Origin: a virus
Taxonomy: Duplodnaviria > Caudoviricetes
Length of the DNA: 64,000 nucleotides
Strand: one strand, 5' to 3'
Virus record (IMG/VR): IMGVR_UViG_3300042507_004106
Shown: one piece after another, positions 8,474 through 64,000 of the stretch
Layout of the letters: each line of letters begins with the position of its first letter
Numbering within the stretch: position 1 is the first letter of the stretch
Position numbers and translations under genes: made by a program
The notes under the pieces: generated by a model
What the model was told of the DNA's origin: nothing
What the model saw: only the letters and a program-made list of their open reading frames with translations
Databases searched by the model: none

Positions 8474-8505
8474 AGCATTGGATTTATATCATATAGGTTA
8501 TGCTT

Positions 8506-8556
8506 ATTATACCACAACTATGGGGGCTTGACAAGTGGTGAAAATGTGTGTAGACT
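8506..8556. promoter_or_regulatory. Back-to-back sigma70 promoters upstream of gp55
   Basis: Minus: TTGTCA(8534-8529)-N17-TATAAT(8511-8506). Plus: TTGACA(8528-8533)-N17-TAGACT(8551-8556). Confidence 0.65.
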
Positions 8557-8583
8557 ACCTTTGTCCCGGTTGAAGATCAGATT

Positions 8584-8994
8584 CTAGCTTTCTTTAAGAC
8601 CCTTAAAGATTCTCTCAAGTTTCTTGCGAGCATCTTCGACTGAAGAGACATATCCCATCTTAGAAGAGGGTTTTACCTTTCCTGTTGGACTATAAACATC
8701 TACAGTATCGTTATCTTCAATGTAGTTGTTGTAAATATCAAGAATTCTTTTATCTTTAGTTTCAGTCATAGTGATAATCTTATCAAGTTTTACAATAAAG
8801 AAATCATCATCAGACATTTCCATCCATGGTTTAACTTTAAGATAAGTTCCTTGTTGACTATTATTGTATATCTTCATTGTAACTGGATTCTGAAGCACTA
8901 AAACTGGATCTCCATCGTTTTCATCTATAAAGACTAACGATAGAATTTCTTCACCTGATACCAGTTTTATAATTGCGTAAAACTCTTCTCCCAT
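8584..8994 (-). CDS. Conserved hypothetical protein (possible Sm-like fold)
   Basis: 136-aa ORF coupled to uvsW; N-terminal IIKLVSGEEIL beta-rich pattern; usual uvsW-gp55 neighbour. Confidence 0.75.
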   Translation of the reverse strand: MGEEFYAIIKLVSGEEILSLVFIDENDGDPVLVLQNPVTMKIYNNSQQGTYLKVKPWMEMSDDDFFIVKLDKIITMTETKDKRILDIYNNYIEDNDTVDVYSPTGKVKPSSKMGYVSSVEDARKKLERIFKGLKES

Positions 8995-10457
8995 CAGTTC
9001 TTAAAAGGTATAGTTACAATATCGTAATTAAAGTTTTCTTCATTATAGACTTTGATTCGTTCAATTAAATGATTAAGAGTATAATTTTTTCTTGACTTAT
9101 AACTGATATCATCAGCAATATCATATAGAGTTGCTTTTGTTTTATTATTTCCTTTTCTTAAGACTCGTCCGATTGATTGGAGGTTTCTGATTCTTGATTT
9201 ACTAGGGGAAGCAAAGATAACATTATGTAAATTTCGGATGTTAATACCAGTAGAAAAAGTGCCGTAAGAAGCAACGATGATAGCATTGTTTTCCTTTTCA
9301 GTAATTTCCCTGACCTTTTCTCGATCTTCGGTATCAACACCACCATGTACAAAGAATACATGACGATTTTCAGCGATACTCTTATTTATGAGATCATATA
9401 AAGGTTGACCATGACCTTCGACTCTCGAAAATAGAATCAGAGTATTTCCTTTAAGATCAAGCGCAAGATTCTTGATAAACTTATTGCGTTTTTCGTGATT
9501 AATAATATATTGAACTTCTTCCTCAAAGTTCTCAAACTTATTCGGTGGGTGTTTCAATAGAAGAATGTTGATGTCTAGTTTTGCAACATGACCCTTCTGC
9601 ATCAGTTCGTCAGTTCTGATGATTTTGTATGATGGTCCGAATAATCCTTCCAAAACCCACTTATGAGTTTGTGATCCATCCAGTGTTCCTGTAAATCCAA
9701 ACCGATACTTACAATCGGAAAGTTTGGACATTATAGATACTAATGACTTCGATTTGAACTGGTGTGCTTCATCTCCGACGACCACATTAAATCTTGAAAA
9801 GTATTGACGGGGAAGTTTGTAGATGGACTGCCAGGTTGTGATAATCACCTGAGAGTCAGTTTCTCTTTCTTTTCCAGCGTAAATTTTGTGGCAAAATGAA
9901 CCCACGTCCCATCCATAATCTGCAAAGTCTTTATACATCTGCTCTACAAGGGATGTCGTTGGAACGACTATCAGAGTATTTTGCCCTTTCTCAACGTAAT
10001 ATCTCACAATCGAATATATCATCAACGACTTTCCAGAAGCAGTTGGAGATATCAACAACTTTCTATTATGTCGTAAAGCGTCGTATACTCCCTCAACTTG
10101 ATATTCCCGAGGGGCGTATTTGCTAATTGAATGCATATAATCTTTCACACCTTCTTTGGAAATCATTTCATTGATTTCAAAGGGAAGACCATAGAATTTA
10201 TTATCTAAAAACTCATATGTATATTCGTGATTCTCGCAAAAGCGAATGAGTTTGTCTAGAAGACCTACGTATATTTCACCAGTTTGTGTGTTAAATAAGC
10301 GAATTTTTCCATCCCAGTGCCTACTTCTATACTGGGGCATAAAACGACTATTGGGGACTTCAAAAGTAAATTGGTCCGCCAATTCATAGTAAACGTGAGG
10401 TTCCGCCTTTACTTCAAGATAAACCTCATTTTTTTTAGATATCACCAAATGAGACAT
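8994..10457 (-). CDS. uvsW: UvsW SF2 helicase
   Basis: PTASGKS, DEAH, GFTGT, QSIGRVLR. Confidence 0.96.
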   Translation of the reverse strand: MSHLVISKKNEVYLEVKAEPHVYYELADQFTFEVPNSRFMPQYRSRHWDGKIRLFNTQTGEIYVGLLDKLIRFCENHEYTYEFLDNKFYGLPFEINEMISKEGVKDYMHSISKYAPREYQVEGVYDALRHNRKLLISPTASGKSLMIYSIVRYYVEKGQNTLIVVPTTSLVEQMYKDFADYGWDVGSFCHKIYAGKERETDSQVIITTWQSIYKLPRQYFSRFNVVVGDEAHQFKSKSLVSIMSKLSDCKYRFGFTGTLDGSQTHKWVLEGLFGPSYKIIRTDELMQKGHVAKLDINILLLKHPPNKFENFEEEVQYIINHEKRNKFIKNLALDLKGNTLILFSRVEGHGQPLYDLINKSIAENRHVFFVHGGVDTEDREKVREITEKENNAIIVASYGTFSTGINIRNLHNVIFASPSKSRIRNLQSIGRVLRKGNNKTKATLYDIADDISYKSRKNYTLNHLIERIKVYNEENFNYDIVTIPFKN

Positions 10458-56352: not shown

Positions 56353-56549
56353 TTCAGTATATGATTGAACCTTTTCTGCTATTATATATTCTCCGGGATT
56401 TTTTGAATAGAGAGATATTGAAAGGTCGATCTGGGTCGTTTATAGCTTATGGGGACCCATTCATTATAACACGGGGGCGGGGTAGGGGACCGCAACCCCC
56501 CACCCACTGCCGATCACGAACGAATAAGACTGCCCCCACGAACAGCGGG

Positions 56550-56720
56550 TCACCCCCGCCCCGCGAATGCCTCAGAGTACTGGGCGGCGATGGCGACGGC
56601 GGGCAGACCCCAGTGGATGTAGGCGGAGGGGCGGGAACCGTTCTTCAGTTGGTCGTGGCGGGAGATCCATTTGATCTGGCGGGTCTCCAGGTCAGAGCAC
56701 ATGCAGAGGGGGAAGCGCAT
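56550..56720 (-). CDS. Early small hypothetical protein
   Basis: Start MRFPLCMCSD after promoter TTGCGA-N17-TACAAT (56774-56746). Confidence 0.65.
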   Translation of the reverse strand: MRFPLCMCSDLETRQIKWISRHDQLKNGSRPSAYIHWGLPAVAIAAQYSEAFAGRG

Positions 56721-56790
56721 CGGTCTGGGGTGGTGAACTGAGAGAATTGTACAGCATCGGGGGGCGGATCGCAACCCACCCCCTCACGAA

Positions 56791-57051
56791 TCAGATGCCT
56801 GCCATTGCGGCGACCAGCCGATCACGCTTGCGGATCGCTTCGGGCAGGATGAACCACTCATCACGCTTGCCGTTGGCGTGGCAGGTGGCGGCGAGGATGC
56901 GCTCCTGCTCCATGTCCACCATCAGGGCATGGATGGTGCCCTTGTGGCGGCGGGGGTCAAGACCCATAGAGCGCACCAGGTCGGAGCAGGTCATGGGGCC
57001 ATCGTTGATCAGGTGAGTGCGGATGGCGGCGCAGATGATGGAGGTGAGCAT
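56791..57051 (-). CDS. Early winged-helix-like DNA-binding protein
   Basis: Start MLTSIICAAIRTHL; GPMTCSDLVRSMGL...TIHALMVDMEQERIL...EWFI; promoter TGC-TACAAT at 57078-57086. Confidence 0.6.
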   Translation of the reverse strand: MLTSIICAAIRTHLINDGPMTCSDLVRSMGLDPRRHKGTIHALMVDMEQERILAATCHANGKRDEWFILPEAIRKRDRLVAAMAGI

Positions 57052-57088
57052 GGTTCGGGGTCCTGTGAACTGAGAGTATTGTAGCAGG

Positions 57089-57256
57089 TCAAAAGGCGAC
57101 CTCATGATCCCAGTAGAGATGCCACAGGGCGGTCAGAGTCTCCCGCTCCCGCTGCTGACGGTAGTGTGCCCAGGACTCGTGCTCAAAGGGACGCAGGGCG
57201 GCAGCGCGGGCAGCGGCGCAGCGCATCGCGTTGTCGGCCCAGGTGTGGTTGGTCAT
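57089..57256 (-). CDS. Early small hypothetical protein
   Basis: MTNHTWADNAMR...; -10 TACAAT at 57283-57288. Confidence 0.6.
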   Translation of the reverse strand: MTNHTWADNAMRCAAARAAALRPFEHESWAHYRQQRERETLTALWHLYWDHEVAF

Positions 57257-57306
57257 CGGTGGGGGAGGTGTCGGTTGAGAGTATTGTAGCAGATCGGGGG
57301 GGGGGC

Positions 57307-57468
57307 TCACTGCCCGTTGGTGTAGTCTCCGATGATGACCCCGTTGCAGCGGACCTGAGCGTAACCGTACTCTTCAGAGAGGTCCAGGCACAGGAGCCAG
57401 GCGCGGTCGGCGTCGGTGGTGGTGTTCTCCCAAGGAGCGGAGGGGCAGAACACGTCGTAGCGGGTCAT
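57307..57468 (-). CDS. Early small hypothetical protein (53 aa)
   Basis: Manual translation MTRYDVFCPSAPWENTTTDADRAWLLCLDLSEEYGYAQVRCNGVIIGDYTNGQ; -10 TATACT at 57492-57497. Confidence 0.7.
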   Translation of the reverse strand: MTRYDVFCPSAPWENTTTDADRAWLLCLDLSEEYGYAQVRCNGVIIGDYTNGQ

Positions 57469-57536
57469 GAGAGGTTGTCTGAACTGAAGTCAGTATAGCG
57501 GGTCGGTGGGGGGCATCGCGGCCCCCAGTGTGCGGT

Positions 57537-57734
57537 TCAGGAATTGGGCCAGAGGGCGTTGGCGATCTTATCAGCAGCGCCCTGCAGGTTGTCGCGGACG
57601 ATCAGGCGGAGGATCTCAGCACCGTCAGGGGTGGCGTGCATCTGGCGGATCATGCTAGGGGTGAAGCAATCCCAGGTGATCACATCAGCAGTCTGCAGGA
57701 GTTGGGCGTCGGCGTTGGAGATGGTGTGAGTCAT
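57537..57734 (-). CDS. Early small hypothetical protein
   Basis: MTHTISNADAQLLQ...; -10 TACAAT at 57757-57762. Confidence 0.7.
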   Translation of the reverse strand: MTHTISNADAQLLQTADVITWDCFTPSMIRQMHATPDGAEILRLIVRDNLQGAADKIANALWPNS

Positions 57735-57767
57735 GGGGTTCGTTGCGGTTGAGAGTATTGTAGCAGA

Positions 57768-57989
57768 TCAGGCGTCCCGTGCTGCTAGGAGCAGGGCATG
57801 AAATTTGTGGAATTCGTGGGTCATGCCAGGGGAGAGAGTCGGGCGTCCCTTGCTGCCGTGAGTCGGAAGGTGGAAGGTCTGGGGGATGCTAGGATGGGTC
57901 ACCTTGTCGTGACTGCCCCCTGATTTGATGGTTGCTCCTGCCTTCAGGAACTGGCGGCGGGCGTCGCGTACCTTGATTGGGGATGCCAT
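57768..57989 (-). CDS. hicA: HicA-family (mRNA interferase-like) protein
   Basis: 73 aa from MASPIKVRDARRQFLKAGATIKSGGSHDKVTHPSIPQTFHLPTHG; GSH...HP...P.H pattern of HicA. Confidence 0.7.
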   Translation of the reverse strand: MASPIKVRDARRQFLKAGATIKSGGSHDKVTHPSIPQTFHLPTHGSKGRPTLSPGMTHEFHKFHALLLAARDA

Positions 57990-58002
57990 AGGAGGGTCGG
58001 GG

Positions 58003-58170
58003 TCAGTGGCGGTCGCTGATGTCCCACACGCCCCAGCCGCCGTTGGCGTGAGCGTCGCGGACTTCGATCGCCTGCTGCCTCTGGGCGCTGGTGTAGGTTG
58101 CCCAACCATCGCTGTTGAGGTCGTCGCCGTAGCAGGCATTCCAGATTAGGTTCGCTTCGGTCAGGGTCAT
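58003..58170 (-). CDS. Early small hypothetical protein (55 aa)
   Basis: Manual translation MTLTEANLIWNACYGDDLNSDGWATYTSAQRQQAIEVRDAHANGGWGVWDISDRH; -10 TATACT at 58194-58199. Confidence 0.7.
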   Translation of the reverse strand: MTLTEANLIWNACYGDDLNSDGWATYTSAQRQQAIEVRDAHANGGWGVWDISDRH

Positions 58171-58239
58171 GAGTCGTTTGCTTTGGTTCCCATAGTATAA
58201 GACCCCCAGCGGCGAACCGTGGGGGTCTGGTGGTCAGAT

Positions 58240-58407
58240 TCAGAACTGGATCGGATCGGCGGTCGGGGCGCTGATTGCCGCATAATGGGCGGCGCAGTCA
58301 GCGATGCCTGCCTGCTCAACGTCGCTGGTGATGGTATCCAGGATCTGCAGGATGCTGTCCCCGTTGCTACCTTGGCGGAGCAGGGACAGGGCAAGGTCGC
58401 GGGTCAT
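58240..58407 (-). CDS. Early small hypothetical protein (55 aa)
   Basis: Start MTRDLALSLLRQG; -10 TACAAT at 58460-58465. Confidence 0.65.
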   Translation of the reverse strand: MTRDLALSLLRQGSNGDSILQILDTITSDVEQAGIADCAAHYAAISAPTADPIQF

Positions 58408-58465
58408 TTGGAATTCGGGTAGAAAGGTTGGCGGAGTCTTTAGGGGCGCTGCCGTTCCCATTGTA

Positions 58466-58627
58466 TCAGCGTTCGAGTTGCGCCAGACTGCTAGGGGCGA
58501 TGTGAGAGGGAGAACCACAGGAGCGGTAGAAGTCTACCATGCGGTCTGCCTCCTCTTTACTGGTGAACCACTGCGACCGCCACTCACAAGCGTTGTAGGG
58601 GGTCTGGTAACGGACTTCGAAGCGCAT
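58466..58627 (-). CDS. Early small hypothetical protein (53 aa)
   Basis: Manual translation MRFEVRYQTPYNACEWRSQWFTSKEEADRMVDFYRSCGSPSHIAPSSLAQLER; -10 TAGAAT at 58653-58658. Confidence 0.7.
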   Translation of the reverse strand: MRFEVRYQTPYNACEWRSQWFTSKEEADRMVDFYRSCGSPSHIAPSSLAQLER

Positions 58628-58813
58628 GGGGTCGTTTGCTTGGTATGGAAGAATTCTACAGGGTCAGCGGGAGACGATATCGCCTGCGGTGTGCAGTGCG
58701 CTTGCCGTCACACTGCGGATCGGTTCCAGCGGACCCCAGAGAGTGTAAGCGACGCAACCCAGAACCAGCAGTTTAAACATCAGAAATTTGCGATGGGAAA
58801 GTGAGAATCAGAA

Positions 58814-59074
58814 TCAGAAATCAAACACGTCGCCGTTAATCTCAGCGCGGTTGATCTTAGGGTCGTTCCACTTCACACCATCGGGAGTTTCTTTGGTGCC
58901 GAACTCATAGAATGCCTCAAGCAGATCCTCATAGCAGCAGATATCATTCTCACGGATGAAGGTATAAATGCCCTCATCATTCTCAATCCAGAGCACAACA
59001 TTCCAGGTCTCATAATTCGTCCAACCGTTATAGGTGCGGTCGGTGAGGTTGGTCTGGTAGGTGGTGGCGGGCAT
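58814..59074 (-). CDS. Early hypothetical protein with YNGWTNYETW motif
   Basis: Start MPATTYQTNL; -10 TATACT at 59097-59102. Confidence 0.75.
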   Translation of the reverse strand: MPATTYQTNLTDRTYNGWTNYETWNVVLWIENDEGIYTFIRENDICCYEDLLEAFYEFGTKETPDGVKWNDPKINRAEINGDVFDF

Positions 59075-59141
59075 TGGGTTCGTTTGAACTGAAGTTAGTA
59101 TAGGGGCAGGGAGGGGGGTCTGTGCCCCCCTGGTGGACAGT

Positions 59142-59894
59142 TCAGTAAGCGTCACAGCGGGCGTTGACTTCCTGCAGAAGTTTACCTACCTTGTCCTGCT
59201 GCAGTTTGATGACAACTTGACTGTTACGGTTTGCCTTACTGGCGCCCAGAAATGCATTGATGCCGTTGTTACTGGTCACCCGCAAACGCAGACCGCAATC
59301 ATACACATTCCCTTCAGCATCTACAAAGTACACCATGCGGGAAGATTTGCCGTTGCCTTTGAGAACAACAGAGTAACCCTTCTGAATGTAACCGACTGCA
59401 GGATGTTGCTCTGCAGCGAACACATAAAGTTCAGAAGTCTTGGTGTCGTTGATCACCAGATCAAACCCAGCATTGTGCTCAATCAGACCACGCTGCAGAA
59501 TCTCAATCACTTGTGCAGAGGTGAGAGAATCCAGGGAAAGTTCGCAGAGAGCATTGAAACTGTCGCGAATCTTCAGCACAAATTCTTCATCAGAACGCAG
59601 CGATTCGGGCATCTGACGGAGTTCTTTCATGTTAGAAAGAAAGTGGTCAAAGGTATCACCCAGCACGTCATTGTAGGCGCTGGTGTTGAACCAATCAAAC
59701 GAACCGTTGCTGATGCCTTCCTTACGCTTGATGCTGATCTTCTTATCACCAGCGACGGCATCTTCCTTACACTTAGTGCCGCCACGCTTCTCTACAGTTT
59801 CGCTGTAGATTTGCTTTTCATTCAGGATTTGAACGGTGAGGTCCTCATTCTTCACACCACCGTGATGAACAGAACCGTCAGTTTTGTAGGTCAT
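59142..59894 (-). CDS. Putative PD-(D/E)xK restriction-endonuclease-like nuclease
   Basis: Start MTYKTDG; GGTKCKEDAVAGDKKISIK; promoter TTGACC-N17-TATTCT (60017-59989). Confidence 0.55.
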   Translation of the reverse strand: MTYKTDGSVHHGGVKNEDLTVQILNEKQIYSETVEKRGGTKCKEDAVAGDKKISIKRKEGISNGSFDWFNTSAYNDVLGDTFDHFLSNMKELRQMPESLRSDEEFVLKIRDSFNALCELSLDSLTSAQVIEILQRGLIEHNAGFDLVINDTKTSELYVFAAEQHPAVGYIQKGYSVVLKGNGKSSRMVYFVDAEGNVYDCGLRLRVTSNNGINAFLGASKANRNSQVVIKLQQDKVGKLLQEVNARCDAY

Positions 59895-60039
59895 TTGTTT
59901 ACCGTGATCGACACGGGCGAATAGAGTAGGTTGGGCAGTCCTCACCTCTGCCCTTGGGGGGTCCTCCTTCCTCCCCCCTGGTGAACATAGAATACCCTGG
60001 ATTGGGGGGCAGGTCAACCCCCTGACCCATTAGCGTCGC

Positions 60040-60933
60040 TTATGCGACCTGAAACCGTCCGCTGTTGAAATTATGATAAGCGAACACCTCACGATTCACC
60101 AGTTTGAACATACCAAACTCATTGGTCATCACATAACCTTCGGCATCAATACGGTTGCCATTGATGTATGCTGCAGGTCCGTCATTGCGGCAGATAAACA
60201 GGCAGTCATCTTTGATGCTCTTTACCAATGCCCACAAACGAATCAGGTTAGCGTCACAATCGAAATCTTCTGCGACGATCTGATCACCCGAACGGATGCA
60301 AGCGTTGATCTGCTGTTTGATCTTTGCTGCTTCCTTCTCACTCACGAACTGAGCAGTAGTAGACATTTGACGGGCAAAATCTACAACCTCTTTTACATCA
60401 GCGAACGACTCTTGATTGTGCAGAATGTAAGCATCAGGTTTGATGAACTTCACCGTTTCAGTATCATTCCAGACGGCACGATCAGGCATTGCGACTGCAT
60501 CACGAAGGTCGCTCTCAGCATAATAGCAAGTGTGAGGAGCGATGATAATCTCTTGAGAAACTACCTCACCAAACTTGTAAGTGATCGTATTGGGGCAATA
60601 CTCATCACTACCGCCAAAACCAATAAAATCACCTTGAATGATAGCATTTGCGCGAGGCAGATAATCAAAGCAAGAATGCAGAATACGCGCAACTTCACCC
60701 TGATAGAATGCATCAATCTCTTCATGATTGTGTGCAATACGAATCTTTTTCTTGTTAAAGACTGCCTTGGTTCCTACAAAGAATTCACCACAGGCAGGGT
60801 CGATGCCCCATACAATGGCGGGAGCACCGTCGATCTTAACGGACAGGGAACCAGGATTCACGAACCAATCCAGAACGGACAGGTCGCCCGTGAGGATGGT
60901 ATCTTCGGGGTGTTCGAGGTGGGTGTTCTTCAT
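60040..60933 (-). CDS. MKNTHLEHPED-family protein with ligase-like nucleotidyltransferase motifs
   Basis: SVKIDGAP (motif I KxDG), IQGDFI, AEGYVM, FKLV. Confidence 0.7.
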   Translation of the reverse strand: MKNTHLEHPEDTILTGDLSVLDWFVNPGSLSVKIDGAPAIVWGIDPACGEFFVGTKAVFNKKKIRIAHNHEEIDAFYQGEVARILHSCFDYLPRANAIIQGDFIGFGGSDEYCPNTITYKFGEVVSQEIIIAPHTCYYAESDLRDAVAMPDRAVWNDTETVKFIKPDAYILHNQESFADVKEVVDFARQMSTTAQFVSEKEAAKIKQQINACIRSGDQIVAEDFDCDANLIRLWALVKSIKDDCLFICRNDGPAAYINGNRIDAEGYVMTNEFGMFKLVNREVFAYHNFNSGRFQVA

Positions 60934-60939
60934 GCTCTT

Positions 60940-61035
60940 AAGATACCAGGGATTCAGGGGCAGCACAAGCGGTAGGGTGCCACCTTACGAACTGGCACAG
61001 GGTGACCCTCTACGGGGTCTGTGGCGTCTTATACT
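60940..61035. promoter_or_regulatory. Symmetric bidirectional early promoter around the 24-bp palindrome
   Basis: Motif GGTGCCA-N10-TGGCACA at 60976-60999; minus -10 TATCTT (60940-60945) and plus -10 TATACT (61030-61035), each exactly 30 nt away. Confidence 0.65.
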
Positions 61036-61125
61036 AAGGTCACAAGCGAAGGAGGGGCGGGGTAGCCCTGAAGACGAAAAAGGTCGCCACTGGGGCAGCT
61101 TTGAAATAGTAAGAAAGAAAGTATA

Positions 61126-61158
61126 AAAAAAGGGAGGCAATCGCCCCCCGATTCTTTA
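61126..61158. terminator. Intrinsic terminator hairpin, possibly bidirectional
   Basis: Minus strand CGGGGGGCGATTGCCTCCC-T7; short TTCTTT on the plus side. Confidence 0.65.
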
Positions 61159-61503
61159 TGCGAACATGAACCCATCTTGGAATTCGTATTCATTGTAGAC
61201 AGGAGAAGTTCCTGCCTGCCCGATGAACTTGTGGACGAACCAATTGAAGTTGCGTTGAAACACACATTCGCCCTTGATTCCATGCTCTTGAAGAATAGCA
61301 TTCAGGCGCGATTTGGTGGTCACAGACTGATAACCACCGTCAAAGATTTGCACGAAGTCATCACCAATGGTGGCGATGTGATTGCCGTGCAGGAACACTT
61401 TAGACTCTTGAGTTTCAGGGTCAAAGGTAACCTCAGTGTTGCCAGACTTCCAGTTGATGGAGTCACGAATGGCGGCGTTCATCTGCTGTTCGATCTTACG
61501 CAT
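61156..61503 (-). CDS. Early hypothetical protein
   Basis: Start MRKIEQQMNAAIR; promoter TTGCAA-N17-CATACT (61557-61529). Confidence 0.75.
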   Translation of the reverse strand: MRKIEQQMNAAIRDSINWKSGNTEVTFDPETQESKVFLHGNHIATIGDDFVQIFDGGYQSVTTKSRLNAILQEHGIKGECVFQRNFNWFVHKFIGQAGTSPVYNEYEFQDGFMFA

Positions 61504-61592
61504 TGGGGGTTTCCCTCTCAACAAATACAGTATGGATCAGATCGGGGGCAATTGCAAGGGGTCTTGTGCCACCTTGTGGACTGTCACATGGT

Positions 61593-61742
61593 TCAGGAAG
61601 TGTAGAGTGCGAAGTTGTACTGTTGCTGCAAACGAGTCAGAATGTCATCCCAGAACTCTTTATCCTCATCGTCATTGTATTGGTTGTTATCTTCAACCAA
61701 ACGAATCAGATTGTTAAGATCGTCAGGAGTGAGATAGTTCAT
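61593..61742 (-). CDS. Early acidic peptide (49 aa)
   Basis: Manual translation MNYLTPDDLNNLIRLVEDNNQYNDDEDKEFWDDILTRLQQQYNFALYTS; TGATG-coupled. Confidence 0.7.
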   Translation of the reverse strand: MNYLTPDDLNNLIRLVEDNNQYNDDEDKEFWDDILTRLQQQYNFALYTS

Positions 61743-61897
61743 CAGACTTCATCCCTCATTTCAGAAAGTTTGTCATACAATGCAGAAACATCTACATTCA
61801 GTTGTTCACTCACGAAACTCCAATCATCATGAAACTCAATGAGTGCCAGAATGGCATCCAGTTCCTCAAATGTCAACGAAGTGAGAGTCATTGTCAT
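61742..61897 (-). CDS. Early acidic peptide (51 aa)
   Basis: Manual translation MTMTLTSLTFEELDAILALIEFHDDWSFVSEQLNVDVSALYDKLSEMRDEV; TGATG-coupled. Confidence 0.7.
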   Translation of the reverse strand: MTMTLTSLTFEELDAILALIEFHDDWSFVSEQLNVDVSALYDKLSEMRDEV

Positions 61898-62022
61898 CAG
61901 TAATCGTAGTTTGCGTTCAGGTACTCATTCACATCGAACTTTTCATCTTTCAGTTCGGGAATGTCCATGTCAAAGATCTCACCAGGAGCATCTTGAATCT
62001 CAGACCAGAGTTCATCAAACAT
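61897..62022 (-). CDS. Early acidic peptide (41 aa)
   Basis: Manual translation MFDELWSEIQDAPGEIFDMDIPELKDEKFDVNEYLNANYDY; -10 TACATT at 62047-62052. Confidence 0.7.
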   Translation of the reverse strand: MFDELWSEIQDAPGEIFDMDIPELKDEKFDVNEYLNANYDY

Positions 62023-62059
62023 GGTTTGTCTCTCAGGAACGAATGTAATGTAGCAGGAA

Positions 62060-62317
62060 TCAGGAACGCTTGGTGCGCTTCTGTGCCACTTTCACAGGCG
62101 GCACATCAGCATTCAGTTGTGCCAGCAGTTGATCCACAATGGTATCAACGAACTGCAGAACAGTTTGCATCATCTTACGGGTCTTTTCTTTGCCATTGTT
62201 CTCATTGAACGAACGCACAGCAAACTGTACAATTCCCACAACGATTGCGGAGATGGTAGCAACGTTGAAGATCAACGTGTCGATGAAAGTCCAGTAGAAA
62301 GTGTTGGTGGTTTTCAT
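62060..62317 (-). CDS. Early putative membrane protein
   Basis: Start MKTTNTFYW; hydrophobic LIFNVATISAIVVGIVQFAV; promoter TTGCAT-N17-TATGTT (62395-62367). Confidence 0.65.
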   Translation of the reverse strand: MKTTNTFYWTFIDTLIFNVATISAIVVGIVQFAVRSFNENNGKEKTRKMMQTVLQFVDTIVDQLLAQLNADVPPVKVAQKRTKRS

Positions 62318-62409
62318 AACAAATGGTGTGGGAGGTTGGTGTAGAGAATTCCTCAACCACGAATCAAACATAACAGGGGGGCAGCACGAATGCAACCCCC
62401 CTTGTACCA

Positions 62410-62556
62410 CTATCCCAACTGTCCCACGAACTCCTGAATATAATAATCCAGCGGCAATTCCAGACGGTTTGCCTCACTTTCCCATTCTTTCCATTCGGCT
62501 TCCGAAGCATCATTAATGAAGTCTTCGAAAGTATATTCAAAAGCGGGACCGCACAT
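62410..62556 (-). CDS. Early acidic peptide (48 aa)
   Basis: MCGPAFEYTFEDFINDASEAEWKEWESEANRLELPLDYYIQEFVGQLG; promoter TAGACT-N17-TACATT (62609-62581). Confidence 0.6.
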   Translation of the reverse strand: MCGPAFEYTFEDFINDASEAEWKEWESEANRLELPLDYYIQEFVGQLG

Positions 62557-62635
62557 AATCAAAAACTCAGGAACGAATGCAATGTAGGACGGATTGGGCA
62601 GGAAGTCTAGGGGTCTTGTGCCACCTTGTAGACTG

Positions 62636-62842
62636 TCACACCTCCGCCAATTGATTAATAATATTGCGGGCAAACTTCATGAAATCATAAGCAGTCACAC
62701 CACCTTTGTGATTGTCGATAGCATAACCATCCAAAACATCGGTTTGATTATACGTGTTCACAATCAGCAGGCAAGCATCATACAGTGCTGCAGAATGTTC
62801 TTCCTTGGAGTTAAACTGGAGAGCGTTGAAGGAAGGAAGCAT
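62636..62842 (-). CDS. Early small hypothetical protein
   Basis: Start MLPSFNALQF; promoter TTGTGG-N17-TATGTT (62893-62865). Confidence 0.6.
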   Translation of the reverse strand: MLPSFNALQFNSKEEHSAALYDACLLIVNTYNQTDVLDGYAIDNHKGGVTAYDFMKFARNIINQLAEV

Positions 62843-62989
62843 CAGGAATCTCAGCGACGAATGTAACATAACCGATTTCCGCCCCCACCACAAGGGGGAT
62901 TGTGCCACTTCTAGAATCGTCACATATAACGCTAGCATTATATTGTATTATAATATTATAACTGGTCCAGTTATAAAAGTGTCACAATA

Positions 62990-63139
62990 TCAGAATGGAT
63001 CAAATTCCTTGGTGCTAGCATAGACTTCTTCGTCACCTTCAAGATCTAATAATTCTTTCCAGTCTATATGTTCTACATCTAGATCATCATAACACATGAT
63101 GTCTAAATGTACACGTACTAGGCGTTTCTGTGCTATCAT
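62990..63139 (-). CDS. Acidic peptide (49 aa)
   Basis: Manual translation MIAQKRLVRVHLDIMCYDDLDVEHIDWKELLDLEGDEEVYASTKEFDPF. Confidence 0.6.
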   Translation of the reverse strand: MIAQKRLVRVHLDIMCYDDLDVEHIDWKELLDLEGDEEVYASTKEFDPF

Positions 63140-63170
63140 AGTACTAGATGCATATGTGTACTAGATTGTA

Positions 63171-63311
63171 TCATGCATAATGACGATACGCGAGATCTTG
63201 ATAATCATGCGCGTCTCGTGCATAGTCCTCGTCGAGCTCTTGTGTATAATACTCTTCGAGATCCGCATAATCGTTTGTGTATGTGTAGTCGAGATCGTAA
63301 TCGTCGTACAT
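63171..63311 (-). CDS. Tyr/Asp-rich peptide (46 aa)
   Basis: Manual translation MYDDYDLDYTYTNDYADLEEYYTQELDEDYARDAHDYQDLAYRHYA; promoter TTGCAT-N17-TACAAT (63369-63341). Confidence 0.65.
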   Translation of the reverse strand: MYDDYDLDYTYTNDYADLEEYYTQELDEDYARDAHDYQDLAYRHYA

Positions 63312-63313
63312 AA

Positions 63314-63395
63314 CTCGTCGAGCTTATTGAATACTAGTATATTGTAGCATAAAGCTCGACGAGATGCAAACTAGATGTGAGTTCTCGTCGAGCTT
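63314..63395. repeat. Three 12-bp CTCGTCGAGCTT elements in alternating orientation
   Basis: 63314-63325 (+), 63352-63363 (-), 63384-63395 (+); an 11-bp copy at 63228-63238. Confidence 0.9.
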
Positions 63396-63456
63396 CTAGT
63401 ACATATATATGCAATCTAGTTGATTTCTAGTCTAGCTTTATGTTAGAATACAAATA

Positions 63457-63825
63457 ATGTTTAGACTAGATTTTATAATGAGATCTCTACGAGAATTAAA
63501 TCCACTTCTAGAAGGATATTGTGCGACTTATGATGGTAAGGTAATATCTAGAAAAAATAAAGTACTTAAGCAATTCAGAAGGAACAAACAGTCTAGGTGT
63601 CCCTATTTAAGTATCAGTGTGTGGGATAAGACCTCTGGTTTTGCAAGACAATTCTTTGTACATCGACTTGTAGCGTATCAATATTGTGATTTAAATCTTG
63701 AAGATATAACAGGTCTTGTGGTTAATCATATCGATGGTAACCCTCATAATAACCATGCAAAAAACTTAGAGTGGGTTACGCAAAAAGAAAACGTACTTAA
63801 GTATCACAGTAACGTTATAACATAA
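63457..63825 (+). CDS. HNH homing endonuclease (HNH_3-type); the only confident plus-strand gene
   Basis: FFVHRLVA...VVNHIDGNPHNNHAKNLEWVTQKEN. Confidence 0.9.
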   Translation: MFRLDFIMRSLRELNPLLEGYCATYDGKVISRKNKVLKQFRRNKQSRCPYLSISVWDKTSGFARQFFVHRLVAYQYCDLNLEDITGLVVNHIDGNPHNNHAKNLEWVTQKENVLKYHSNVIT

Positions 63826-63883: not shown

Positions 63884-63912
63884 TTGACGAACTGCGAGTC
63901 TTATGCTACGCT
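63884..63912 (+). promoter_or_regulatory. Plus-strand sigma70 promoter
   Basis: TTGACG-N17-TACGCT with extended -10 TGn. Confidence 0.6.
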
Positions 63913-63925
63913 CGCTTAGCTCACA

Positions 63926-64000
63926 AGACCTGGAGGGGTTTATAAGGTACTGGAGGCATTTATAAGCATTTAGAGCACTTAGACCTGGAGGGGTTTATAA
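63926..64000 (+). repeat. Short direct repeats CTGGAGG(GG/CA)TTTATAA
   Basis: AGACCTGGAGGGGTTTATAA at 63926-63945 and 63981-64000; variant CTGGAGGCATTTATAAG at 63950-63966. Confidence 0.85.

Follow-up and report, generated by a model that had tools for sequence, protein, structure and literature searches.

Promoter-early stem-loops (PeSLs) have been described in the T4-type phages RB49/phi1, PST/T4, and nt-1/KVP40 (Arbiol et al. 2010, PMC2839356; Comeau et al. 2014, PMC4122927), and documented cases of gene shuffling at such elements had previously been limited to T4 relatives infecting enterobacteria and vibrios. Vibriophage nt-1 also carries middle-promoter stem-loops (PmSLs), repeated cassettes in which an upstream MotA box replaces the -35 element (PMC4122927). 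The hyperplastic or "ORFanage" region of the T4-like cyanophage S-PM2 holds small variable open reading frames (ORFs) with links to a freshwater gene pool; only one early promoter and two stem-loops were recognized there, and PeSL-type shuffling was judged unlikely (Puxty et al. 2015, PMC4503421). Full-text literature searches returned no description of PeSL-type arrays in cyanophages. Here, we report an array of 22 small genes (g1 to g22) in a 64,000-nucleotide (nt) stretch of viral DNA (IMG/VR record IMGVR_UViG_3300042507_004106; Duplodnaviria, Caudoviricetes), the whole of which is referred to as the window, where repeated promoter modules probably double as homologous crossover repeats, in a cyanophage-specific form of PeSL-like shuffling.

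Judging from its genes, the window belongs to a freshwater T4-type cyanophage of the Kyanoviridae, in agreement with an earlier note on this DNA, which had proposed a cyanophage. Profile searches recovered T4-type genes for the major head protein, portal, sheath, terminase, baseplate gp6, and gp46; the Kyanoviridae-specific families Kyano_Gp96 and DUF6267 are encoded inside the array; and the capsid protein is 83% identical to that of freshwater Synechococcus phage S-SRM01, the nearest isolate, whose paper makes no mention of promoters or repeats. Isolated phages included no close relative at the DNA level (only short 72 to 88% matches), and window DNA was present in 24 lake-water metagenome runs (71 to 99% of sampled words); no RNA run was among the sequencing runs listed for the array region or for 56550 to 58400.

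The array is read on the minus strand from g1 (63311..63171) to g22 (56720..56550), with the AT-rich conserved genes g23 and g24 next. The earlier note had listed 17 minus-strand -10 boxes, and a -10-like hexamer was located at all 17 coordinates on that strand (16 TAnnnT and one CATACT), 12 of them ending 22 to 26 nt ahead of a start codon. A TAnnnT hexamer ending 22 to 26 nt upstream was found for 14 of the 22 start codons, as against 10% of the region's other ATGs (binomial P = 1.9e-9). Two further sites were recognized, TACAAT before g2 (63165 to 63170) and TGTTATAAT (56466 to 56471). Altogether, the 22 array genes have 18 predicted promoters ahead of them, a single one serving each of the groups g6-g7-g8, g12-g13, and g16-g17, which bears out the one to three genes per cassette seen earlier; TGTTATAAT is the 19th, ahead of g23. 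The shared leader families that had also been reported were recovered as direct repeats of 28 to 69 nt (families D1 to D6) and are specific to strand and region: five of six minus-strand matches to GTGGYACA fall inside the region, TGnTAYRMT has eight minus-strand and zero plus-strand matches within it, and a profile built from seven window modules matched nothing in the 64-kb window outside the array. In 39 related loci, that profile found 104 sites, every one oriented with transcription. Stop codons overlap the next promoter at g1, g14, g17, and g20, again as had been noticed.

Modules at 56.7 to 59.1 kb form one class, in which one- or two-gene cassettes begin with (C)TGC-TACAAT-ACTCTCA or TATACT-(G/A)ACTTCAGTTCA, as direct repeats of 28 to 39 nt. 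Another class, at 60.9 to 62.9 kb, comprises six promoters with a common 24-bp imperfect palindrome (the box), the 3' half of which (GTGGYACA) stops exactly 30 nt short of a TAYRTT -10; TTGnnn at 17-nt spacing is present in most of the six, and the leader (A/G)CATTCGT follows. A TTGnnn -35 at 17 nt occurs in the modules of this class and at 56746. A generic sigma-70 and terminator scan detected few modules and one canonical terminator only, missing most sites because most have no -35, and Rfam searches gave only sub-threshold chance matches. Among 72 distinct modules from relatives, a TGGCACA-type half-box lies 29 to 31 nt from the -10 in 34, and a -35-like hexamer occurs in 9 of the 72 GC-rich-type modules versus 6% of shuffles. 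As read from these motifs, the module is made of box, hairpin, -10, and leader and does not appear to be a textbook sigma-70 promoter.

Many modules had been said to carry a GC-rich stem in or near the -35/-10 spacer. This held for about 8 of the 17 (56746, 57492, 58194, 59097, 59989, 62367, 62865, and 63341), which have a strong stem, the example given earlier (58200 to 58228) being exact; the other modules have none. The stems are usually G5-6...C5-6 and lie over the -35 position. Mean folding energy is -13.8 kcal/mol for the 48 nt preceding the -10 and -9.1 kcal/mol for coding windows from this region (Mann-Whitney P = 2e-4). In relatives, 57% of the 72 distinct modules fold at -12 kcal/mol or lower, and their stems vary in sequence and even in polarity (C-run first). 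The hairpin evidence consists of fold energies and stem-sequence diversity, the stems lying at variable positions in mosaic, poorly alignable intergenic DNA.

A search with g10 yielded 590 related IMG/VR stretches, from which 80 loci were kept for comparison. Their flanks are conserved (g1/g2 upstream; g23, g24, and gp6 downstream), and between these nearly all of the 80 loci have a cassette set and order of their own; the collinear, invariant content that the earlier note had named as grounds for rejecting its proposal is not what we found. Genes g9, g6, g12, and g19 occur on either side of g10, depending on the locus, and g16, g20, and g21 are each present in only one locus. The regions upstream of orthologous g12, g19, and g22 are mosaics of differing leaders, hairpins, and boxes. 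Two segments of the related locus L046 are missing from the window: 1073 nt between g19 and g20, bordered by a 34-nt repeat (57272 to 57305), and a roughly 200-nt cassette between g21 and g22 that has a copy of a 65-nt module (56718 to 56782) on each side. The 40-nt unit of the g18 module is present in five copies in L046 and also occurs in other relatives.

All-against-all comparison of the 80 loci and the window gave 85 de-duplicated indels of at least 80 nt. Direct repeats of 14 to 83 nt (median, 30 nt) flank 35 of them, with a -10 contained in 25 cases and a box or hairpin in 5; a promoter lies within 40 nt of a further 9, 36 are at promoterless stop/start overlaps, and 5 belong to no class. 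Exact-protein look-ups placed the window's own genome in many lake samples, along with two natural variants. The first, L085/L086 (two Joint Genome Institute [JGI] samples), matches the window at 99.9% identity from 57301 to 55494 and has unrelated sequence upstream. It switches at the start of the g20 module, where the window has TGA, a C-run, and GATCTGCTACAAT and the variant has CGCTGA and then TCTGCTACAAT; the upstream part of L085 is an array of nine one-gene cassettes, two with 34/34-identical modules. The second variant, L090/L096, is 99.6% identical from beyond the window end to 57071 and then diverges inside the -10 of the g21 module. Beyond 57071, L090, which is recorded in two sources, has eight other cassettes separated by near-identical units of 68 to 70 nt (TTGACC-loop hairpin, TATACT, leader). 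Window-type and variant contigs came from one sample (3300042366), and the L085-type junction was seen again in Logan contigs of two further lake runs (loose end, 57295).

Independent contigs were checked in four further public lake runs. Contigs were found in which the g5 cassette is removed, from the hairpin loop to the g5 3' end (62065->62392), the g16 cassette is replaced (57992->58189), or g7 is removed (61738->61894, with 7 nt fitting both sides). Loose ends at 56725, 56734, 57462, 57497, 57735, 57989, 62026, and 63313/63322 are leader, -10, or start-codon positions, those at 57497 and 57462 being where lake variants depart from the window at the g19 module. Joints 56751->61030, 57087->57730, 57091->57735, and 57295->57735 were not counted as deletions, their sides being short (23 to 30 nt) and the intervening sequence not known. 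No "going-back" joint was reported in these lake-run contigs, which are assemblies and not raw reads. Breakpoints in promoter repeats and homology-driven gain and loss of cassettes had both been predicted beforehand; the 57301 and 57071 junctions and the 35 repeat-flanked indels agree with the prediction, and the 36 of 85 indels at promoterless overlaps do not.

At L090:7944-9586, five consecutive genes of about 190 to 225 nt (8504 to 9514) are bounded by six near-identical modules of 66 to 72 nt (TTGACC-loop hairpin, TATACT, leader), and two more cassettes with module variants flank the block. Three of these genes are paralogues ending in WLGY, with the stop in or near the hairpin of the next module, and the block appears from its sequence to be a cleaner PeSL-type array than the window's own. 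A separate 434-nt insertion relative to L039 (L040:14585-15018; L055:6720-7153), in AT-rich DNA downstream of g24 (the g25 area), overlaps by only 2 nt at its junction, where there is no promoter module, and may represent an intron or a homing element.

The array also stands out in guanine-plus-cytosine (GC) content, as the earlier note had remarked. It is a 6.6-kb island of 0.44 to 0.62 GC per kb in a backbone of about 34%; GC climbs from 44% to 62% per kb along the direction of transcription and falls abruptly at 56.45 kb, and the gradient is seen in long relatives too. GC at third codon positions (GC3) is 0.64 to 0.86 for g12 to g22 (56550 to 59074), versus 0.16 to 0.32 for structural genes, the capsid gene having 0.49. 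A GC3 of about 0.75 is retained by g19 and g22 orthologues down to 50 to 60% protein identity (g23, g24, and gp6: 0.20 to 0.35), which makes the GC-richness an old, maintained property of these cassette families and not the result of a recent import here. No tRNA was found in the window (ARAGORN), and a tRNA array was discarded as the source of the GC rise. To look for a host source of these GC-rich genes, 185,579 species genomes were scanned with g21, a single short query of limited sensitivity. No cyanobacterial match was obtained; the only two matches are metagenome-assembled genomes labelled Bacteroidetes and Rhodobacteraceae, perhaps mis-binned phage DNA. Cyanomyoviruses stay AT-rich and depend on their own tRNAs in GC-rich hosts (PMC3152331). 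Possible sources of the GC contrast are host-like codon tuning before phage tRNAs act, GC-biased gene conversion in a recombination hotspot, and continued exchange with a GC-rich gene pool.

We consider PeSL-like shuffling, with promoters serving also as homologous crossover repeats, the likely explanation, which lends partial support to the PeSL-like interpretation given earlier. The array would then be a hyperplastic, presumably early-expressed accessory region of tandem small transcription units. Each module would open, where the element is present, with the palindromic box or only the 3' half of it (GTGGCACA-like), whose end lies 30 +/- 1 nt ahead of the -10. A G-run/C-run hairpin over the -35 position would often come next, then a host-type -10 (TACAAT, TATACT, TAYRTT; often TGn-extended) and a conserved initial transcribed region lacking a Shine-Dalgarno sequence, with the start codon 22 to 26 nt after the -10. 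Host RNA polymerase with its primary sigma factor may start at each module, and the hairpin may insulate or stabilize the transcript of the upstream cassette. The near-identical modules of 25 to 70 nt would be crossover sites for the phage's general recombination (gp46/47-type genes are present in the window); as repeats of this length they would be substrates for the highly active general recombination of T4-type phages (Arbiol et al. cite a need for <50 bp of homology in T4; PMC2839356). Cassettes would be deleted, inserted, and exchanged between co-infecting relatives with no site-specific recombinase, and microhomology at overlapping stop/start codons in multi-gene, translationally coupled groups (g6-g7-g8 and its relatives) would provide a second seam.

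The locus resembles PeSLs in that a T4-type phage carries repeated predicted promoters and G-run/C-run stem-loops between small ORFans in a hyperplastic region, in that crossovers spread from the stem-loop to the ATG and no dedicated recombinase was found in five relatives, and in that indel and replacement junctions between close relatives fall in the motifs, here alongside the promoterless indels. It differs in its cyanobacterial host, in that most of its GC-rich modules lack a -35 and an AT-rich upstream tract, in the position of the hairpin (over the -35, not upstream of it), in the palindromic box 30 nt upstream of the -10, in hairpins without U-tracts, and in forming a strong GC island in an AT-rich genome. 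With the PmSLs of nt-1 it shares an upstream box that replaces the -35 in a repeated cassette, but its own box, a 24-bp palindrome, ends about 30 nt from the -10, whereas the PmSL box is TGCTT at -30. Cyanomyoviruses lack MotA/AsiA (PMC3152331). The small variable ORFs recall the S-PM2 region; unlike in S-PM2, modules are dense here and junctions map onto them.

Several points weigh against shuffling at the modules. The 36 indels (42%) at stop/start overlaps (ATGA, CTGATGA, TGA...ATG; 0 to 12 nt of microhomology), the window's g7 included, have no promoter nearby, so the module repeats are not required for turnover and are one of two kinds of seam. About half of the window modules are without a hairpin, and the sole hairpin with a U-tract (T-run) is the g9 terminator (61132 to 61149), making canonical intrinsic termination unlikely for the others; start sites, early timing, and termination are predictions from the DNA letters. 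A "promoter + gene" unit inserted beside another would also look repeat-flanked, and selection against gene disruption would leave junctions between genes under any mechanism. An ordinary regulatory array, with modules alike by functional constraint, turnover by illegitimate or microhomology recombination plus selection, and repeats that are not causal, would account for the promoterless indels, and selection by itself would put surviving junctions between genes. We nevertheless think it rather improbable, because the junction repeats are long (median 30, up to 83 nt) and in register, because two variants with 99.6 to 99.9% identical flanks switch exactly in the -10/leader, and because identical 34-nt modules stand ahead of unrelated genes and leaders are conserved well past the promoter consensus, which argues for copying of modules and not convergence. 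Assemblers can also misjoin contigs at repeats; the comparison sequences are all metagenome contigs, many contigs end near 57155 to 57400, and modules of up to 70 nt could mislead short-k-mer assemblers. That the variants are such chimeras and the array is really stable is nonetheless the least credible of the explanations considered: two JGI samples, as well as Logan contigs from two more runs, contain the L085-type junction, L090 is in two sources, the 34-nt repeat at 57272 to 57305 is scarcely longer than typical k-mers, and hundreds of diverged relatives have different, internally consistent gene orders. Recurrence of the junctions in independent assemblies and samples makes chimeras unlikely.

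Integron cassette arrays share with this locus tandem small single-gene cassettes, imperfect palindromes between them, and high turnover; hairpins also lie between the cassettes here, the box position is fixed, and an HNH endonuclease gene adjoins the array. An integron-like site-specific system, with the box and/or hairpin as an attC-like site for a dedicated phage or host recombinase, is still very unlikely. No tyrosine (PF00589) or serine (PF00239) recombinase was found in five related phage records, one of them a 100%-complete 234-kb genome (control genomes were positive), a search that did not include the window phage's own whole genome; the result fits the integrase-free system proposed before. 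The cassettes here, unlike those of integrons, carry their own predicted promoters, many cassette borders are without a box or hairpin, and the fixed distance from box to -10 is that of a promoter element. Crossovers are scattered over box, hairpin, -10, and leader (57301 and 57071 differ relative to the -10), which points to homology-driven and not site-specific exchange. There is a little less than an even chance that the array is mainly a regulon, a special promoter class under a phage or host DNA-binding factor, with recombination as a side effect and its GC content as immediate-early tuning to a GC-rich host; this is compatible with shuffling at the modules, not in competition with it. 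The half-box at 29 to 31 nt in 34 of 72 modules without a -35 and the exact 30-nt spacing in six window promoters favor it, as do the high GC3 of g19 and g22 orthologues, the GC enrichment of the capsid gene, and the use by AT-rich cyanomyoviruses of their own tRNAs in GC-rich hosts (PMC3152331). It is weakened in that no factor was identified and the array's winged-helix g21 occurs in only 1 of the 80 relatives. More doubtful is a distinct cyanophage system, in which a three-part promoter (24-bp palindromic box, hairpin with conserved pairing but variable sequence, and -10) would work without a -35 through a box-binding factor, together with a host-like GC content that may be kept either because translation ahead of the action of phage tRNAs is selected for or through GC-biased gene conversion in a recombination hotspot.

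Table 1. Modules and other features of the array, with window coordinates (MFE, minimum free energy in kcal/mol; z, z-score)
Feature	Coordinates	Strand	Description
Whole array	56353..63459	-	22 small genes g1-g22 (35-297 aa) and 19 predicted promoter modules, between HNH gene and conserved g23/g24
g1 module	63312..63395	-	13-bp hairpin 63351-63395, TTTGCA in loop; -10 TACAAT 63341-63346; MFE -19.7, z -4.5
g2 module	63140..63173	-	g1 stop TGA makes extended -10 TGATACAAT (63165-63173); absent from the earlier list of 17
g3 module	62843..62924	-	24-bp box 62901-62924; C5/G5 hairpin around TTGTGG; -10 TATGTT 62865-62870; families D2, D6
g4 module	62557..62640	-	Box 62617-62640, 30 nt, -10 TACATT 62581-62586; families D2, D5, D6
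g5 module	62318..62411	-	Half-box; G6/C6 hairpin 62376-62401 enclosing TTGCAT; -10 TATGTT 62367-62372
g6-g7-g8 module	62023..62104	-	Box 62081-62104 within g5 3' end; -10 TACATT 62047-62052; families I2, D6
g7	61742..61897	-	Promoterless single-gene indel; stop/start overlaps, 7-nt microhomology CTGATGA; missing in many relatives
g9 (Kyano_Gp96) module	61504..61588	-	Box 61565-61588, TTGCAA, 17-nt spacer, CATACT 61529-61534; families D2, D5
Non-coding cassette	60934..61155	.	g9 terminator 61132-61149, box 60977-61000, g10 -10 TATCTT 60940-60945, plus-strand ORF-less element
g11 module	59895..60039	-	Hairpin around TTGACC; -10 TATTCT 59989-59994; 94-nt leader with second G6/C6 hairpin
g12-g13 module	59075..59141	-	Degenerate half-box TGTCCAC; G6/C6 hairpin; -10 TATACT 59097-59102; TTCAGTTCA-family leader (D1)
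g14, g15 modules	58408..58663	-	g14 -10 TAGAAT 58653-58658; g15 TGATACAAT 58460-58468 overlapping g14 stop; both without hairpin
g16-g17 module	58171..58239	-	9-bp hairpin 58200-58228 abutting -10 TATACT 58194-58199; MFE -21.4, z -3.4
g18 module	57735..57770	-	Stop codon, TCTGCTACAATACTCTCAACCG, leader (family D4)
g19 module	57469..57536	-	Half-box remnant; G6/C6 hairpin; -10 TATACT 57492-57497
g20 module	57257..57306	-	Natural recombination junction; variants L085/L086 switch at 57301
g21 module	57052..57091	-	Second natural junction; L090/L096 diverge within -10, after TGACCTGCTA
g22 module	56721..56790	-	10-bp hairpin, TTGCGA 17 nt before -10 TACAAT 56746-56751; MFE -24.0
Distal boundary	56353..56549	-	GC hairpins; TGTTATAAT 56466-56471; 113-nt AT-rich leader to g23; abrupt GC drop

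At g10 (DUF6267), the -10 hexamer ends 6 nt before the ATG (60933 to 60945). Divergent relatives retain this spacing with differing hexamers (CATACT, AATACT), and its conservation suggests a leaderless g10 mRNA. A conserved ORF-less element of about 110 nt (61030 to 61156, plus strand) runs antisense to the array behind a plus-strand TATACT (61030 to 61035), which has box 60977 to 61000 in common with the g10 promoter, and extends to the bidirectional g9 terminator. It was found in 14 relatives (75 to 88% identity) at differing array positions and so behaves like a cassette without coding sequence; this candidate small RNA matches nothing in Rfam.

The cassette genes are for the most part ORFans, and the host-takeover and anti-defence cargo proposed in the earlier note is still a guess, the sole hints being g17 and g21. 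The g17 product (57768 to 57989, minus strand; second gene of the g16-g17 cassette) matched a HicA-type toxin (phrog_18430, 1.7e-15; Pfam HicA_toxin, weak), and no HicB-like gene was recognized beside it. The g21 product (56791 to 57051, minus strand; 86 aa) was modelled as a winged helix-turn-helix (predicted local distance difference test [pLDDT], 88), and its top PDB neighbours are all MarR/PadR/ArsR/Z-alpha (weak, E ~5e-3); it is predicted to be a winged-helix protein. Searches of the g10, g11, and g21 sequences against PDB chains gave no meaningful match. Metagenomic homologues of g21 number 268, some on contigs of >200 kb. Bordering the array on the opposite strand is an HNH-type endonuclease gene (63457 to 63825, plus strand; Pfam HNH_3, weak), and direct repeats of a 20-nt unit, AGACCTGGAGGGGTTTATAA (family D12), occupy 63884 to 64000 and run off the window.

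Kyanoviridae are among the most abundant phages of aquatic primary producers, and near-identical lake genomes that differ by cassette sets joined in modules offer population-level evidence for the mechanism in this family. The box-hairpin--10 architecture provides a handle on how early transcription may be programmed in cyanomyoviruses, which are without MotA/AsiA, and the compositional island one on the expression of the earliest genes of AT-rich myoviruses in GC-rich hosts. For engineering, the array offers a natural landing pad where accessory genes could be added to these phages. Should the distinct cyanophage system be real, its modules would be at once a regulon, transcript insulators, and the exchange joints of a cassette pool of lake phages.

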